The notes beneath the pieces are model-generated. The model was not told the DNA's origin. It saw only the letters and a program-made list of their open reading frames with translations, and did no database searches. DNA of 64,000 nt, from IMG/VR virus record IMGVR_UViG_3300042691_019786; one strand, written 5' to 3'. The position numbers were made by a program, and so were the translations under genes. Within the stretch, counting starts at the first letter, position 1. The number at the start of each line of letters is the position of its first letter. This DNA is from a virus. This document shows, piece after piece, positions 13,738 through 19,421 of this stretch.

Positions 13738-15501
13738 CTATTTTAATTTTATTTTTATTTTAGTACCATTAACAATTTTTTCTGAAAAAATTTCAAAACC
13801 ATGTTCTTTAAGTATTGCTATACAAATATTTAACCCTAACCCCGTACCAGGTTCTTTTTGGTTTTTATTTCTATTATATGGTTTAGAATATTCTTCAAAT
13901 TGGTCTTGTGTTAATCCTCTACCATTATCTTCAACAACTAGCGTTTCATCATCTTCCATGTAAATGTTGACCAATTTATTGCTTGAGTCATTGTATTTTA
14001 AACCATTTCTAATAAGATTATCAATTGCTGTACAAAACAATGATTCGTTAACTTCAAAATTAGGTAAATCATGTATTTTAACTTGACTGAAATATGCTGT
14101 TGATTTTAAAAAGGTTGTTAAAATTTCTTTTAAGTTATGATAATCTTTAGCTAACACAGCGTCTTTTTTAACCAAATTTGTAAACTCATAAACACCTTTA
14201 TAAACTTTCTGTGTATGTTTCAAACCTTCTTTAAGCATCTTCAATGGTGCTTCTAATTTATTTACTTCAATTATTTCTGGTGTTAATCTTCGTTGTAATG
14301 AATTAATTCCTCTTGGGATATATGTATTTATACCAGAATGCATATCGTGTCTTAGAATCTTCGCAGCGTGCTCTAAATAGGTGTTCTTTTTGTTTAACTC
14401 ATTCAATGATTCATATAACTCAGTCATATCTTGTCTTATTGATGAGAAACCGATTAATTCATTCGTATCATGGTCAAACTCTGCTTTAATATATGTATCA
14501 ACATAATATAAACTACCATTCTTTCTTTTATTCACAACCAAACTATGCCAAATCTTCTTATCGTTGACTGTAGTTTTATACATCTTAGCCCAGAATTTTT
14601 TATCATGGAAACCAGAATTAACCAAATTATGGTCTTTACCAATTAATTCTCTTTTTGTGTAACCACATACTTCTGAAAATTTTTTATTGGCGTATGTTAT
14701 TTTACCATGTTTGTCTGTTTTTGAAACCAACGCTGTTTCATTTATGAAATCTTGGAAATCAACAAGATTTTGTTCAACCATTTTATTTTCTTTTACTGAA
14801 TACATAAAAGAATATAATGAAGATAACATTTCGGCAAAATTAATTTCAACTTTATGCCATTCTCTAGGTGTTAATGATTCAATACAAATTACACCTATTA
14901 CTTTACCTTTATAAAGTATTGGAACATCTAACATAGATTTAACACCTAATGGAATCAAATAACCATCTTTAAAACATTTTGTTGATGGATGTGTTTCAGC
15001 GTCATCAGCAACAATAATTGGATTAACACTTAGCGCATTAAAATAAGGTTCATAATCTTTTTTATTTAATGTTAACCCTTCAATCCATTTATCATCACTT
15101 TTAATGTATAGTTGTTGACAAATGATACTTGTTTTATCGTTGTTGTATAACCAAATAGAACATCTATCAACATTTGCACATAACGTCACTTCTTTGGTTA
15201 ATAGTTTGGCACCATCAACAATATTCCCATCATAAAACAATTGATTGTGTGATTGATGTATTAACGTTTCGTTTAATGATTTAGCGTAATAATTTAAATT
15301 CTCTGATTGTTTGCTTTTCTTTATATAGTTTCTTACGAATAATACTGCTGGGATAGAAAAAAGGATAATTGATAAATAATTGAATATTGCAATCTCTTTA
15401 CATAATGGAATATAATCTAACATTATAAAGGTATGTGTTAAAATATAAAGCATCATGATAATAGAACCAATACCGATATATAATTTGTTAAGTTTATCCA
15501 T
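13738..15501 (-). CDS. sensor histidine kinase (2 TM-GAF-PAS-HisKA-HATPase)
   Basis: GAF (VDRCSIWLY...KSMLDVPI), PAS (ITYANKKF...GY...ELIG...NKRKNG), H-box LRHDM, N-box NLIRNGLKYN, G1 EDNGRG, G2 GTGLGL. Confidence 0.93.
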   Translation of the reverse strand: MDKLNKLYIGIGSIIMMLYILTHTFIMLDYIPLCKEIAIFNYLSIILFSIPAVLFVRNYIKKSKQSENLNYYAKSLNETLIHQSHNQLFYDGNIVDGAKLLTKEVTLCANVDRCSIWLYNNDKTSIICQQLYIKSDDKWIEGLTLNKKDYEPYFNALSVNPIIVADDAETHPSTKCFKDGYLIPLGVKSMLDVPILYKGKVIGVICIESLTPREWHKVEINFAEMLSSLYSFMYSVKENKMVEQNLVDFQDFINETALVSKTDKHGKITYANKKFSEVCGYTKRELIGKDHNLVNSGFHDKKFWAKMYKTTVNDKKIWHSLVVNKRKNGSLYYVDTYIKAEFDHDTNELIGFSSIRQDMTELYESLNELNKKNTYLEHAAKILRHDMHSGINTYIPRGINSLQRRLTPEIIEVNKLEAPLKMLKEGLKHTQKVYKGVYEFTNLVKKDAVLAKDYHNLKEILTTFLKSTAYFSQVKIHDLPNFEVNESLFCTAIDNLIRNGLKYNDSSNKLVNIYMEDDETLVVEDNGRGLTQDQFEEYSKPYNRNKNQKEPGTGLGLNICIAILKEHGFEIFSEKIVNGTKIKIKLK

Positions 15502-15538
15502 GTTGTAAGTTTTTAATATAAATATTTAAAAAAAACTG

Positions 15539-15566
15539 AAAAACCCCAGCAATTGCCAGGGTTTTT
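15539..15566 (-). terminator. intrinsic terminator after lysozyme/endonuclease locus
   Basis: aaaaacccc...gggttttt hairpin. Confidence 0.65.
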
Positions 15567-15587
15567 ATTGTTTTTTTGTTTATAATT

Positions 15588-15650
15588 TTATTTTGTGAAA
15601 TATAAATCAGCTTCTGCTGTTCTTCTTCTAACTAAACCTTTCAATGTTCG
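15588..15650 (-). pseudogene. orphaned 3' fragment of a lysozyme gene (RTLKGLVRRRTAEADLYFTK*)
   Basis: aligns with the C-terminus of the intact lysozyme (KVLKGLVVRRQAEADLYFKKD); overlaps the endonuclease end in another frame. Confidence 0.9.
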
Positions 15651-16293
15651 ACAAATACTTAAACGTAGTATCATTCTTTCTAAAGCCATTTAATTTATTA
15701 ACTAAAGTACTATAACTTATATTAGTATCTTTAGCACATTCTTTAATTGAATCCCAAATTTTACCGTTTTCAATACAAATAATTTTTTTAGCATTACAAT
15801 GTTTACCACCACTAATTGAATTTGAATGTTTTATTTTAGTTTCAATACTTTTAGTTTTACCTTTTTGTGATGGTGGTACAAAACCTTTTTCTTTCGCATT
15901 TTTTGATAATTTGGATTTAGTTTCATCAGACATTACCTTACCTTTCATTCTATCTGAAATTTTTCTCCTACCTTCAATAGTTTTAGAATAGTTCTTATCA
16001 CCTAACATCAATGGTGGATTTTCACCACCATCAGTTAAATTAACTAAAGTGCCAGTACCTAAATCTTTTCTACCATATTCGTAAATTAATTTTTTTTCCA
16101 TCTCACAAGCTTCTTCCCATGATAAATCTTCAGCTAATATTTCAACTTTATAATTAGTTTTATTTATAATGTTTAACCAAAAAATTGAACGTTTTGTTTT
16201 ACTTTTTTGGTAAGCCCTAGCTATAGTTTTACCAATACCAACATAAAAAACTTCGTTAGTATCTAAACGTACATGTCTATAAACAACCGCCAT
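15628..16293 (-). mobile_element. free-standing GIY-YIG-type homing endonuclease with NUMOD3/NUMOD1-like DNA-binding region (start MAVVYRH)
   Basis: VYRH...FYVGIG...RAY...E..LI..YGR...LVNLTDGG; SDETKSKLS and SIETKIKHS repeats; SIKECAK HTH. Confidence 0.85.
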
Positions 16294-16294
16294 T

Positions 16295-16756
16295 TCAATC
16301 CTTTTTAAAATATAAATCAGCTTCCGCTTGTCGTCTAACAACTAGACCTTTTAATACTTTATTTGAAGCTTTTGTCCATTTCATAAATTCTGCTCTGATT
16401 GTTTCATCGTTAGGGTTTTTATTAACTTTTTTTAATAATGTTGACGCTTTTAAATTTGCTGGTCCTAAATTATAACAAAAAGACACCAACGCATCGAACT
16501 GATTTTGTGTTATTTTGTCTATACAGTATGAATCAACATATTGTTCAAATTTTATTAACATAGATTTTAACAATTCAACACCTTCAGCTTCTGTTACAGC
16601 TTTGTCAGCCATAGTAACTTTCTTACCATTAGGGTAAAAAGTTGCGCCATATCCGATAGTACAAATTTTTGCTGGACATAAATAAGGCTTACTAGAAAAG
16701 CCTTCAAAACTTTTTATTAAGTTTATACCATTTTCACTAATTTTAGTTATTTTCAT
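16295..16756 (-). CDS. endolysin, GH24 (T4/RrrD-like) lysozyme
   Basis: LIKSFEG...PY.CP...TIGYG; QNQFDALVSFCYNLG; GL..RR.AE. Confidence 0.93.
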   Translation of the reverse strand: MKITKISENGINLIKSFEGFSSKPYLCPAKICTIGYGATFYPNGKKVTMADKAVTEAEGVELLKSMLIKFEQYVDSYCIDKITQNQFDALVSFCYNLGPANLKASTLLKKVNKNPNDETIRAEFMKWTKASNKVLKGLVVRRQAEADLYFKKD

Positions 16757-17441
16757 ATTCTTTAATTATTCTATTTATTATGTTTCTAGATAAATTATAT
16801 TTCTTATGTAATTGTAATTTATTTATACCATTATTATAATCTATAATTATATCATTTTTTATATTTTCTTCTATTATTTTAAAATTATGTGGTTTGTTAT
16901 TCTCATAATATTTTTTAAGCCCTTTTGAAGTCTTTTCTTTCGTTTCTTCACTTAATTTAATACCCTTCTTTTTTGACTCTTTACCTTTAGTTCCAATAAC
17001 ACCTAACTTGTTTAGTTCGTAAGTTTGTTTACTTTTAAGTTCTTTTAATTTAGGGTCCGACCAAGTTTTTTTTGAAGTTTCACTTCGTTTTTTCTTTGTT
17101 TCTTCAGATTGTTTCTTACCAGTTAGTTTTTCTGAGATTATATTTTTTTGTTCTTGACTCATACCTTTATTACCATCACCACCATTGGTCATGTTAACTA
17201 AACTACCTAAACCTAAATCACGTCTACCATATGTTTCTATTAATAATATTTCAAGTTCTTTTGCTGATTCATAATCAATATCTTTAACTATTATCTCAAC
17301 TTTATATTCAGTTTTATTAACTATATTTTCCCATAATTTATTTCTAGAACGTTTTTCATATGCTCTTTTTTCTTTTACACCAATACCAATATAAAAAATT
17401 TCATTAGTATCTAATCGTCTATGTCTATATACTACCGCCAT
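16743..17441 (-). mobile_element. free-standing GIY-YIG-type homing endonuclease with NUMOD3 repeats
   Basis: paralog of 15628-16293 (MAVVYRHRRLDTNEIFYIGIG...LVNMTNGG); SEETKKK repeats. Confidence 0.85.
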
Positions 17442-17444
17442 TAA

Positions 17445-17558
17445 TTAATTAGCTATTGTTGGTACACCAGCTGGACATTTATAAGGTTTTGCACTGAAAC
17501 CTTCAAATTTCTTGATTAGTTCGATACCTTTTGTACCAGTTTTTGTAATCTTTTCCAT
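17445..17558 (-). pseudogene. orphaned 5' fragment of a lysozyme gene (MEKITKTGTKGIELIKKFEGFSAKPYKCPAGVPTIAN*)
   Basis: 37 codons aligning to the first ~35 residues of the intact lysozyme; stops 3 nt before the endonuclease ATG; TATTTAT motif upstream. Confidence 0.92.
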
Positions 17559-17586
17559 AACTTTTATTCATAAATATTGTATCAAT

Positions 17587-17617
17587 AAAAAAAGGTACCC
17601 ATATGAGTACCTTTTTT
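17587..17617 (-). terminator. intrinsic terminator
   Basis: aaaaaaggtac-ccatatga-gtacctttttt. Confidence 0.8.
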
Positions 17618-17638
17618 ATATTTTAATTAATTAAATAT

Positions 17639-19375
17639 TTAGTATTCTTCATTCATACCTTCACCCATCGCCATATTAGTATCAGCACCCATATTTTGTT
17701 GTGCGTCTGGTTGTTTAGCGTTCATATCACTAACAACCATATCAAATTTATCTAAAAGTGTACCTAATTTACCAGTATCTTGATTACCTGGATTATCAAA
17801 TACTGAAATTAATTTATCAAATATATTGTATAAAGTAACTCTTTCGTTTGCAGCTATTTTACCAAAAACACTTCTTAATTTATTATTAATCATATCTCTG
17901 AAATCATTAAAACCTATTTTAAGACCTTCAGCTTCGTACATACCTTCTTCATACATACCTTCTTCATACATACCTTCACCCATCCATGATTCGTTGATTG
18001 GTTCAAATTTAATTCCACCAATTACAACACCTTCAGATAAACCTTCTTCGTTTTCTTTAGCTTCAGTTTCAACTTTTGCAGTTGATTCTTTACCCATGTG
18101 AATGTGTTTTTTAGCGTCAGCAGCGTGAGGAACTTTGATTTCATCCCAGTTACCTTCTTTAGCTGTCACATCTTCGATATTTTTACCACCTTTAGATGCT
18201 GTTTCTGTTGATTTAGTAGTTTCTTCTTTTACTTCTTCTTCTTCTTTAACAACTTCTTCTTCTTCAACAGATTCTTTCATTGTTACATGTTTAGTAGCTT
18301 CAGCTGCATGTTTTTTAATTTTTTCAAATTCACCAGTTTTTGGATTTGGCGCTTCAGTTTTCTTTTCAGATGCTACAGAACCTTCAACATGTTTTTTTGC
18401 ATCAGCAGCATGAGGAACTTTGATTTCATCCCAGTTACCTTCTTTAGCATCAGCATCTTCGATGTCTTCCATCTCCATTAACATTTTTGTTTTTTTCCAA
18501 ATATCGTTAAACGTTGAGTTTTCATCTAATCTAGCTCTACCTTTTACAGTTCCTAATGTTTCTTGAGATTTGTACCCCATTAGGTGTTTCATTTTTTGCA
18601 TGTCTTCATTAACCATGTTTTTGTCAGCTGCCATAAGAACAACTGCTTTACCTTCAGTTAATGAACCTTCCCAACGGATTTTATAGTTTTCAACACCATC
18701 AGTCATTTCAAATACTTTTTTATCTACTTTGTAAGATTCTGGTATCATTTTAAGTGCATTTCCAACACCGTTAAACTCTTTTTTGAATTTAAGTCTTTTC
18801 ATTCCTTCTTTTATTTGTGGTTTATTGTTATCTTTATTCTCAAATGCATAAGCCTTATGACTTTTATCTGGCGTAACTTCCCAGTCATCACCAAACATTT
18901 TTGTTGTTGGTGTTTCTTTAGCTCTAATTTCTTGTGACTTTTCAATTGACGCTGCTAGATTTTTTCCAAAATCTGGACCAGTAAATCCTTGTTGTGCTGG
19001 AATAACATTAGCCCATTCTGGATTGTTACCCATTCTACTAGAACCAACAATAGCTTCTTTAGCTCTATCACTAAATTCTTTATTTGGATTTCTATCATAT
19101 TGAATCATCTCTTGACCATTCATGATTTCCATTTGGTCATGATATTCTTTTTCTTCGTTACTGTTATAATTAAATTTGTTGTTAACATCAGTAACTTCCA
19201 TACCTTTGTTCAAATTTTTATCATAACCGTTTAAATCTTTATCAACATCTTTTATTGCTTGTTTGTTAATTTTTTCAGAAGCTTTTTGAGCTGCTGCTGT
19301 AACTGCAATACCTGGAGTTTCAGCCTCATTAACAAATTTGTTTACTAGATGTTTTTTAATTATATTTTTATCCAT
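17639..19375 (-). CDS. large acidic protein with internal repeats, putative internal head/scaffold-like protein
   Basis: 578 aa, Glu-rich; duplicated KEGNWDEIKVPHAADAKKH; EGMYE x3; TATTTAT upstream. Confidence 0.6.
   Translation of the reverse strand: MDKNIIKKHLVNKFVNEAETPGIAVTAAAQKASEKINKQAIKDVDKDLNGYDKNLNKGMEVTDVNNKFNYNSNEEKEYHDQMEIMNGQEMIQYDRNPNKEFSDRAKEAIVGSSRMGNNPEWANVIPAQQGFTGPDFGKNLAASIEKSQEIRAKETPTTKMFGDDWEVTPDKSHKAYAFENKDNNKPQIKEGMKRLKFKKEFNGVGNALKMIPESYKVDKKVFEMTDGVENYKIRWEGSLTEGKAVVLMAADKNMVNEDMQKMKHLMGYKSQETLGTVKGRARLDENSTFNDIWKKTKMLMEMEDIEDADAKEGNWDEIKVPHAADAKKHVEGSVASEKKTEAPNPKTGEFEKIKKHAAEATKHVTMKESVEEEEVVKEEEEVKEETTKSTETASKGGKNIEDVTAKEGNWDEIKVPHAADAKKHIHMGKESTAKVETEAKENEEGLSEGVVIGGIKFEPINESWMGEGMYEEGMYEEGMYEAEGLKIGFNDFRDMINNKLRSVFGKIAANERVTLYNIFDKLISVFDNPGNQDTGKLGTLLDKFDMVVSDMNAKQPDAQQNMGADTNMAMGEGMNEEY
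17933..17977. repeat. 15-bp tandem repeat x3 (encodes EGMYE)
   Basis: ttcrtacataccttc three times. Confidence 0.9.
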
Positions 19376-19421
19376 TTTAAATTGATTTAATTATAAATAT
19401 CTTAGTTTTTAATAAAGTTTA

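Follow-up and report, generated by a model that had tools for sequence, protein, structure and literature searches.

A giant-phage lysozyme gene probably invaded at both ends by GIY-YIG homing-endonuclease genes, each with a replacement gene end

Introduction

This study addressed how an intact lysozyme gene in a giant phage from lake water came to lie between two nuclease genes, with a second copy of its start ahead of the first nuclease and a second copy of its end behind the other. Homing endonucleases usually spare a host gene by occupying an intron or intein, by using an intergenic site, or by ribosomal bypass (as in T4 gene 60). The locus lies within a 64,000-nucleotide stretch of IMG/VR virus record IMGVR_UViG_3300042691_019786 (hereafter, “the window”). 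In the reading that we prefer, to which a probability of about 0.88 was assigned, two free-standing GIY-YIG homing-endonuclease genes entered the lysozyme gene in separate events, and each of them brought a replacement gene end. The order of these events is nuclease 2 first and nuclease 1 later.

Locus Layout

Every element listed in the original prediction was found in its place on the minus strand. The order of the unit is promoter-like motif, start stub, nuclease 1, lysozyme, nuclease 2, end stub, and terminator. The promoter-like motif, ATATTTAT (17570..17577), lies 12 nt 5' of the stub ATG and is the sole copy from the stub to the terminator. The N-terminal lysozyme stub (17445..17558; 37 codons and a stop) contains resident nt 1–107 (17558–17452), followed by two new codons, the second of which is the stop. 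The ATG of nuclease 1 (16743..17441; 232 aa) is located 4 nt past this stop. The first 14 nt of the intact lysozyme gene (16295..16756; 462 bp encoding 153 aa) overlap the end of nuclease 1, with the nuclease 1 stop inside the lysozyme start. Nuclease 2 (15628..16293; 221 aa) begins with an ATG 1 nt past the lysozyme stop and terminates inside the C-terminal stub (15588..15650), which comprises the resident last 20 codons and a stop, with no start attached. The frame of this stub differs from that of nuclease 2, and the overlap corresponds to the last 7 codons of the nuclease. A terminator-like hairpin (15539..15566), featuring a 12-pair stem and then a T-run, closes the unit. Because the reading frames of the unit abut or overlap, its translation is probably coupled.

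The intact lysozyme is a GH24 enzyme by its match to the PF00959 profile, of which it covers positions 1–125 of 125 (E = 5.1e-40); it also matches the phrog_7 endolysin family (E = 4e-51). The two stubs are not chance matches, since the N-terminal stub matches PF00959 by itself (E = 3.8e-4), both stubs are recovered when the phage record is searched in six frames with the lysozyme as query (E = 8e-9 and 4e-3), and both extend the nucleotide synteny with related phages that have a single uninterrupted lysozyme gene. The start stub extends the upstream synteny with L013, and the end stub extends the downstream synteny with L013, L015, and L007. A blastn search of the region against 50,697 annotated phage records returned one match (68%), which lies in the lysozyme gene of an uncultured, unannotated phage of 642 kb.

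Family and Site Specificity of the Nucleases

The two nucleases are paralogues (48% identical over the first 149 residues), and both match the phrog_314 homing-endonuclease family (E = 3e-16 for nuclease 1 and 2e-27 for nuclease 2). An AlphaFold model of nuclease 2 had pLDDT values above 90 over residues 1–30 and 41–70. Its best match in the PDB was the catalytic domain of I-TevI (1mk0; Z = 10.5, rmsd 2.2 over 86 of 97 residues), followed by 1ln0 (Z = 10.3) and by other GIY-YIG nucleases, including UvrC (Z = 7) and T4 EndoII (Z = 5.5). The C-terminal part of the model matches the DNA-binding domains of I-HmuI and I-TevI (Z = 6.2 for the latter). Both nucleases are therefore predicted to have an I-TevI-like GIY-YIG fold, nuclease 1 by way of its 48% identity to the modeled paralogue.

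Residues Y5, Y17 with G19, R26, E66, and N85 are invariant in 39 homologues (both nucleases included), and would represent the conserved Tyr...Tyr, Arg, Glu, and Asn of GIY-YIG motifs A, B, D, and E; the same order and spacing are described for I-TevI (PMC2988022). NUMOD3 is present in 24 of the 39 homologues. Wider searches turned up roughly 3,000 members of the nuclease family. The Pfam GIY-YIG profile (PF01541) scored nuclease 2 below threshold (E = 0.61; 10.9 bits against a cut-off of 22.6) and did not match nuclease 1, so the family assignment rests on the fold and the motif pattern. Only one of the 39 homologues reaches E = 0.01 with this profile. A phmmer search of the PDB with nuclease 2 returned noise only, and a search with the 39-sequence profile reached nothing beyond the DNA-binding domain of I-TevI (E = 0.14).

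Relatives of the two nucleases were located with respect to lysozyme genes. Those of nuclease 1 (56–95% identity) adjoin a PF00959 gene on its upstream side in six of six loci, overlapping its start or fused to it; in L145, the relative forms an in-frame fusion with the lysozyme. Relatives of nuclease 2 (61–73%) lie directly downstream of a lysozyme gene in all four contexts, the window included. No lysozyme gene was found within 3 kb of any of 42 more distant relatives. To judge from these gene contexts, the nucleases represent two sister lineages that occupy opposite ends of GH24 lysozyme genes, that of nuclease 1 the 5' end and that of nuclease 2 the 3' end.

The 5' Insertion

The borders of cassette 1 (16653..17451; 799 bp, minus strand) were taken from strains that do not have the insert. 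The cassette opens with a 10-nt leader that has a stop in each of the three frames; the nuclease 1 gene follows, and a recoded 5' end of the lysozyme gene completes it. Its insertion point falls between resident nt 107 and 108. L130, a near-identical sister strain, and L133 are 99.9% identical to the window upstream and are without exactly 16653–17451. Contigs from two further lake studies (runs X7 and X20) join 16652 to 17452, i.e. they skip the same 799 nt, with no ambiguous bases. At this exact site, then, presence/absence polymorphism exists among near-identical genomes (L130, L133, X7, and X20), and in the empty-site forms the stub leads directly into the lysozyme middle. The 5' insertion is thus directly observed.

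The sister strain also bears on the claim that the stubs and the middle of the intact gene once formed a single allele. The L130 lysozyme equals the start stub at nt 1–107 and the intact gene of the window from nt 108 to the stop; the 42 differences between the two full-length genes all fall within nt 1–107. The claim was thereby borne out for the 5' end. Over these 107 nt, the stub is identical to the L130 start (107/107) vs. 59.6% identity to the window's own inserted start. The junction lies directly before conserved glycine-tyrosine-glycine codons, where the original prediction had placed a target site, and recoding is dense here (9 of 18 nt differ directly before nt 107).

A counterpart of cassette 1 occupies the same site in an unrelated phage, L138, with 92–97% nucleotide identity (95% for the nuclease at the amino-acid level). 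Its flanks are only 60–80% identical to those in the window, and identity falls on both sides at the same borders. The L138 cassette lies within a different lysozyme allele and a different gene neighborhood, and a resident-type stub of its own is present. As these identity profiles indicate, cassette 1 is an element that moves between phages. Start stubs are also found in L141 and L142/L144; they are absent from L139 and L145.

Insertion 1 must be very recent, because the start stub is identical at 107 of 107 nt to a living allele. This recency bears on a variant of the preferred reading in which both insertions took place but the nucleases have since become inert passengers or domesticated proteins, such that the arrangement is a fossil and no longer an active homing system. 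Nuclease-free alleles with recoded ends are common, as they should be once a homing cycle nears its end and targets become scarce. However, both nuclease ORFs are intact and have kept all residues that are invariant in the 39 homologues, and current lake metagenomes contain forms both with and without the cassette. We regard a fossil state as unlikely, although it is the best-placed of the alternatives considered here.

The Probable 3' Insertion

Sequence comparison argues strongly for a second insertion at the 3' end of the gene. From the end stub onward, the sequence is syntenic with eight relatives in which the lysozyme gene is single and uninterrupted. Segment identities were taken against L012/L013, the closest of the syntenic relatives. 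The end stub is closest to them (87.9%, vs. 75.9% to the window's own intact end), and so are the start stub and the flanks. Compared to this reference, the stubs are 87.5–87.9% identical and the lysozyme middle 86–87%, vs. 63.5% for the replacement N-terminal end and 77.6% for the replacement C-terminal end. The replacement N-terminal end instead matches another allele, L006, at 89%. The replacement C-terminal end belongs to a foreign allele: it is identical at 89 of 89 nt to L007 (nt 367–455), whereas the middle diverges from that allele by 13%. In another phage, L134, a 73%-identical nuclease is accompanied by a replacement end and by a resident stub that begins at the same codon.

The intact lysozyme is accordingly a three-part mosaic, composed of a recoded 5' end (16756–16653), a resident middle (ca. 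16652–16391), and a replacement 3' end that covers at least 16366–16302 and possibly starts at 16390. The segment identities, together with the comparison to L130, uphold the earlier description of the gene as a chimera with a new 5' end, a resident middle, and a new 3' end. The 3' junction, located between the double-glycine codons and the next Lys/Arg codon, likewise agrees with the proposed target site. Near it, 10 of 12 nt differ at nt 391–402, and the double-glycine motif is lost in all four nuclease-2-linked alleles. I-TevI-type enzymes cut some 25 bp away from their binding site, so neither insertion junction need be a cut site.

The coherent-allele claim is supported at this end by the identities to L012/L013 and L007, but the corresponding empty site was not found. 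An exact-pattern scan of viral contigs with the end stub revealed no nuclease-2-free strain, a degenerate pattern for an uninterrupted allele with a stub-like end had no match in metagenome contigs, and a protein search with the L130 lysozyme yielded no cluster above 92% identity with a stub-type end. Such a strain may still exist despite these results. Because no nuclease-2-free strain with the exact stub was found, the case for the 3' event is one of comparison and not of an empty site. The lysozyme population is itself mosaic among the alleles compared, and the coherent-allele argument is therefore weakened for the 3' end. The recoded ends are not exclusive to the cassettes, since they also occur in the nuclease-free, stub-free alleles L006, L007, and L008; their source could be ordinary allelic recombination.

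If a ready-made block of nuclease 1, lysozyme, and nuclease 2 had replaced the resident middle in a single event, only the stubs would be resident. The intact gene is overall nearest to L006 and L007 (91–92% aa) and not to the stub-matching relatives, and both nucleases tightly flank the lysozyme, as such a block would have it. Yet the middle is as near to L012/L013 as the stubs are, and cassette 1 keeps its own sharp borders in L138. Above all, L130 carries nuclease 2 with the same middle and C-terminal end (100% identical), no nuclease 1, and the resident start; to derive it from a block, an exact 799-bp deletion would be needed at a junction that offers no homology. A single event is consequently very improbable. 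The independence of the two insertions, as originally proposed, is upheld by the same strain, which carries nuclease 2 only.

Expression Signals, Splicing, and Assembly

The motif ATATTTAT is not over-represented in the window (27 found vs. 21.9 expected), and it is strand-biased, with 21 of the 27 copies on the minus strand. Exact copies lie 12–18 nt 5' of the ATGs at 17558 (the stub), 15501, and 19375, the latter two belonging to the neighboring genes; the motif may thus work as a promoter. A sigma-70 promoter scan was uninformative (22 sites vs. 16.6 expected). A third terminator-like site (16704–16684), inside the lysozyme start, is probably due to chance.

Group I introns that encode endonucleases are known in phage lysin genes, which would give some color to the notion that the nucleases reside in self-splicing introns, or that RNA- or protein-level joining of the pieces makes the stubs real exons. 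No RNA dataset was listed among the 24 sequencing runs surveyed. That notion is nevertheless very improbable: an Rfam search of 15000–18000 at E up to 1 detected no intron family (only weak matches at the terminator hairpin), a complete full-length lysozyme ORF lies between the nucleases, each stub duplicates a segment already present in the intact gene, and the cassette 1 leader is closed by stops in every frame. Each nuclease forms an ORF of its own between stops, with no self-splicing intron or intein around it; the cassette borders fall in coding sequence, and the Rfam search matched no intron ribozyme core beside the ORFs.

The arrangement is not an assembly artefact, because it is 100% identical over 6.6 kb in the independent assemblies L128 (NCBI) and L129 (JGI), and one contig of another run, X3, carries it with zero differences. 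In run X6, 0.65 of the sampled words matched, but only short fragments of other organisms' relatives were recovered. The source is metagenome-assembled and several lysozyme alleles coexist in such samples, but a chimeric assembly of two strains, or a tandem lysozyme duplication that decayed independently of the nucleases, is scarcely credible given the identical arrangement in assemblies from several studies, the same architecture with diverged sequence in L134, L138, L141, and L142, and the occurrence of tandem lysozyme genes in none of 80 related loci.

Proposed Mechanism

Under the preferred reading of two separate invasions, each cassette would comprise a nuclease gene and a diverged copy of the lysozyme segment between that gene and the insertion site. 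The nuclease would cut a nuclease-free lysozyme allele near the insertion point. The broken end on the gene-middle side would then invade the homologous middle of the nuclease-carrying allele of a co-infecting phage, and would copy outward across the recoded gene end and the nuclease gene. The other broken end would meet too little similarity in the recoded segment and would be joined without loss, such that the resident end is left as a stub. The outcome would be a unit that is preceded by a single promoter-like motif, that of the lysozyme, and closed by one terminator. The scheme presumes that the nucleases cleave, where exactly they cut, that the recoded ends are immune, how the break is repaired, and that the unit is expressed. 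One-sided, illegitimate double-strand-break repair has been demonstrated experimentally in T4 homing (PMC2988022).

Relation to Known Systems

The closest parallel is with the mobile endonuclease ORFs (mORFs) of fungal mitochondria, which add a foreign C-terminus to the invaded gene but do not remove the native one (PMC3630166). Gene hybrids of this kind are described for atp6 of Allomyces macrogynus and for atp6, atp9, cox2, and nad3 of Glomus (PMC3630166); the Allomyces case was reported in 1994, as cited in that paper. As in cassette 2, the mORF endonuclease gene travels with a foreign 3' end of the invaded gene and the native end becomes an unused downstream duplicate; as in the window, the retained native copy is nearer to relatives than the inserted copy is. 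The differences are that the host here is a bacteriophage and that the nucleases are separate ORFs beyond a stop codon, not fused in frame. The window also holds the mirror form (a nuclease with a replacement 5' end and a promoter-bearing stub upstream), and both forms share one 462-bp gene. The locus works like an mORF element but is not classed in that mitochondrial group.

Among phage elements, the T4-like Seg endonucleases (SegF, SegG, and SegB) are also free-standing, intergenic GIY-YIG enzymes with NUMOD-type DNA-binding tails, and cleavage of the nuclease-free allele lets them spread, flanking markers being co-converted in the process (PMC2988022). The Seg elements reviewed there replace flanks and leave no duplicated gene ends, whereas the window keeps the displaced end and has its insertions inside coding sequence. 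MobA and the gene 60 bypass element of T4 are cited as a mobile DNA cassette in a preprint (bioRxiv 10.1101/2022.08.31.505936). There, too, a homing-endonuclease gene moves with sequence that alters its own target while an essential gene stays functional; the T4 case features ribosomal bypass of a 50-nt insert and an HNH enzyme, in contrast to a complete replacement gene end and a GIY-YIG enzyme in the window. I-TevI of the T4 td intron (PDB 1mk0, 1ln0, and 1i3j) shares the two-domain layout of nuclease 2, but it is intron-encoded and only 22% identical in sequence, and the window has no intron. Nucleases at recombination boundaries are treated in PMC10448857, which does not deal with target-gene duplications. 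The terminus-carrying strategy is known from fungal mitochondria; no phage precedent for terminus-duplicating endonuclease cassettes was found in the literature searched, which covered only a minority of subscription journals.

Significance

The stub and the resident middle may, more tentatively, serve as two target-derived homology arms of a self-contained, context-independent homing unit (an “intron without splicing”) that could pass from one phage to an unrelated one with no more than the conserved lysozyme gene in common. The sister lineages would then partition the gene ends, and the presumably immune recoded ends would sweep nuclease-free phages of the L006–L008 type, making the nucleases the main driver of mosaic endolysin alleles in lake phages. 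We consider this extension possible, if on balance doubtful.

For annotators, a short ORF ahead of a nuclease gene may turn out to be the displaced start of whichever gene follows the nuclease. The locus also offers two natural pairs of predicted sensitive and resistant target sequences that are usable for studies of GIY-YIG specificity. It further suggests, in concrete terms, how phage genomes can acquire mosaic alleles and the short orphan gene fragments that gene callers overlook. In phages, it represents a fourth solution to the sparing of the host gene, in which the nuclease carries a spare, rewritten gene end; the empty-site strain, the second genome with the cassette, and the sister lineages at opposite gene ends support this view.

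Organization of the lysozyme unit

The order stub, nuclease, lysozyme, nuclease, stub was confirmed, with every element lying where the original prediction had placed it, in one compact unit on the minus strand (window 15539-17577). A promoter-like ATATTTAT motif (17577-17570) is followed by an orphan start fragment of a lysozyme gene (N-stub, a 37-codon ORF at 17558-17445) and by a 10-nt leader with stop codons in all three frames (17451-17442). The gene for nuclease 1 (232 aa, 17441-16743), a putative homing endonuclease, comes next; the ATG of the 153-aa lysozyme (16756-16295) lies 14 nt within its 3' end, and that of the paralogous nuclease 2 (221 aa, 16293-15628) is 1 nt past the lysozyme stop. 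An orphan end fragment in another frame (C-stub, 20 lysozyme codons and a stop, 15650-15588) and a hairpin terminator (15566-15539) complete the unit, all features being on the minus strand. The complete lysozyme belongs to PF00959 (E 5e-40), the N-stub by itself also matches this family (E 3.8e-4), and both stubs came up when the phage record was searched in six frames with the lysozyme as query. Given the abutting frames and the single copy of ATATTTAT upstream, the four ORFs probably share one late transcript with coupled translation.

ATATTTAT may be a late-promoter element in this group of phages. Three minus-strand copies (15518-15525, 17570-17577 and 19393-19400) are positioned 12-18 nt upstream of the ATGs of three successive genes; the minus strand carries 21 of the 27 copies, and the overall count is not above chance. 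At the position of the second catalytic acid (Asp) of T4-type lysozymes (window 16685-16700), Cys apparently occupies most alleles and Asp a few (L017, L141), as judged by visual alignment only.

The unit is real DNA. Two independent contigs, L128 (NCBI assembly) and L129 (JGI assembly), match the window at 100% identity across 6.6 kb spanning the whole unit, and a contig from a further run (X3) contains a 2.15-kb stretch with zero differences. The runs holding window sequence are lake and other freshwater metagenomes, and the exact nuclease 2 protein is present on at least 22 contigs. The source is a 126.5-kb IMG/VR record judged 36% complete, which makes the window a fragment of a very large phage.

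The nucleases

Nucleases 1 and 2 are 48% identical over 149 residues, and their tails differ. The match to the Pfam GIY-YIG profile was weak (E 0.61). For a predicted model of nuclease 2 (mean pLDDT 82.6), the best structural match was the catalytic domain of I-TevI (Z 10.5, rmsd 2.2, 86 residues), followed by other GIY-YIG nucleases, and the tail of the model matched DNA-binding parts of I-HmuI and I-TevI. Tyr5, Tyr17, Arg26, Glu66 and Asn85 are invariant across 39 homologues, 24 of which contain NUMOD3.

Uninterrupted relatives

All 80 related viral loci contain a single lysozyme (61-92% identity), and in none of the 80 was a stub, or a nuclease between the stub positions, found. In eight syntenic relatives, the gene order is the upstream 578-aa gene, lysozyme and histidine kinase. 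The window aligns with one of the closest of these, L013, in two pieces that meet inside the L013 lysozyme: 17621-17452 with the upstream spacer and the first 107 nt of the gene, and 15649-12000 with its last 62 nt and everything downstream. The stubs are therefore the ends of the resident gene, still in place, and their proposed identity as displaced lysozyme termini was borne out by synteny.

The 578-aa protein (window 17639-19375, minus) has no Pfam or PHROG match. Two copies of a 75-nt repeat, 92% identical, lie within its gene (18105-18178 vs 18390-18463), as does a short tandem repeat of 15 nt near 17932-17977 that has more copies in the relative L008. Genes for a GAF-PAS histidine kinase (587 aa), a 145-aa stand-alone receiver and a protein of 184 aa immediately follow the lysozyme unit (window 13738-15501, minus, and genes downstream; L128:3793-6547).

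The 5' insertion

Nuclease 2 occurs without nuclease 1 in L130 (a contig of 121.9 kb from a different JGI sample), in L133 and in one more contig. Upstream of the unit, L130 is 99.9% identical to the window. Nucleotides 1-107 of its lysozyme equal the N-stub and nt 108 to the stop equal the intact gene of the window, such that all 42 differences between the two lysozymes fall within nt 1-107. Stub and middle thus form one allele, with the replacement start discordant. Contigs from two other lake studies (X7 and X20) join 16652 straight to 17452, a 799-nt skip with no ambiguous base. The L130 comparison and these junctions set the borders of cassette 1 at 16653-17451. The cassette comprises the leader, nuclease 1 and a replacement start of 104 nt, which shares only 59.6% identity with the N-stub. 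Since the L130 junction offers no homology for precise deletion, L130 is an empty site and nuclease 2 arrived first. The 5' insertion event is demonstrated.

The main X7 contig lacks cassette 1; the same sample yielded a 234-nt contig matching nuclease 1 with 4 differences (window 17059-17292) at low depth (2.8 vs 15.1). Its source may be a cassette-bearing strain present as a minority or a different phage that carries a related cassette.

Cassette 1 is portable between phages, judging from L138, where nuclease 1 is 95% identical and the gene neighborhood differs, with an amidase and an RNase II-like gene after the lysozyme. Identity to the window is 92-97% from the nuclease ATG through the last base of the replacement start and drops to 60-80% on both sides of the cassette. 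A start stub is also present in L138; it is of that phage's own allele type, and its end lies within 1-2 bases of the window's position. Among more distant carriers, a start stub extends 3 nt further in L141 (nuclease 66% identical), comprises 17 codons in L142 and L144 (63%) and is missing from L139 (68%). In L145 (2501-3706), a 56%-identical relative is fused in frame to the lysozyme as a single 401-aa ORF (P0154), with no stub upstream.

The probable 3' insertion

The C-stub continues the synteny with relatives. Identity to L012/L013 is 87.9% for the C-stub, 87.5% for the N-stub and 86-87% for the gene middle, and only 77.6% for the intact C-end; the expected discordance of the replacement terminus was thus supported by allele comparison. 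The intact C-end (16302-16390; nt 367-455) matches L007:4361-4449 without mismatch over 89 nt, and the middle is 13% diverged. The chance of such a tract at that divergence is about 4e-6, and the replacement C-end is therefore a foreign segment that was shared recently. L134 has a 73%-identical nuclease behind a different lysozyme allele with a replacement end, and the resident-type stub starts at the same Lys/Arg codon as in the window. In L136 (65%) and L137 (61%), the nuclease directly follows the lysozyme, with no stub. Pattern scans of viral and metagenome contigs and a protein search with the L130 lysozyme found no nuclease 2-free strain with this C-stub. From the synteny, the allele comparisons and the L134 arrangement we strongly infer a 3' insertion by cassette 2 (nuclease 2 and the replacement 3' end). 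With the empty site at the 5' end, the alleles compared here uphold the earlier reading of two nuclease insertions, each with a replacement terminus.

L007 carries the replacement C-end tract with neither nuclease nor stub; recoded ends therefore also circulate without nucleases. Start and end variants are combined in many ways across the 120 closest lysozyme clusters (P0239-P0358); for example, recoded-type starts are found with ordinary ends, and ordinary starts with recoded-type ends. The lysozyme allele pool is, by this sampling, strongly mosaic.

Site specificity and proposed mechanism

In 6 of 6 loci examined, the nuclease 1 lineage is situated just upstream of a lysozyme and either overlaps the lysozyme start or is fused to the lysozyme, and the nuclease 2 lineage is just downstream in 4 of 4 contexts; among 42 more distant family members, no lysozyme lies within 3 kb of any. 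Divergence of the replacement segments is highest next to the junctions, with 9 differences in the 18 nt before nt 107 (AG(I/V)P to AKIC) and 10 in the 12 nt at nt 391-402 (GGRT to SNKV), the usual double glycine being lost in all four nuclease 2-linked alleles. Such recoding is the pattern that a putative immunity of the carrier allele predicts.

In T4, homing with one-sided homology leads to illegitimate junctions, and I-TevI remains bound to one cleavage product (PMC2988022). Here, the putative nuclease would cut near nt 107/108 of a lysozyme allele. The right end could then pair with the conserved middle of the donor; the left end would find no partner in the donor start, which is strongly recoded. 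If the recoded start and the nuclease gene were then copied and a non-homologous join closed the break, the outcome would be exactly the observed product. The 3' end would follow the mirror image of this pathway.

On insertion, mobile ORFs of fungal mitochondria supply a foreign C-terminus, and the native C-terminus stays behind (PMC3630166). Cassette 2 has the same design, although the host is different and nuclease 2 is not fused in frame. As far as the literature searches reach, no phage description was found of the 5' mirror form, of double occupancy of one small gene or of end-specific sister lineages. It is speculation, given that the window's stub contains no donor-derived base, that the stub and the gene middle, once formed, could act as a pair of homology arms in later transfers.
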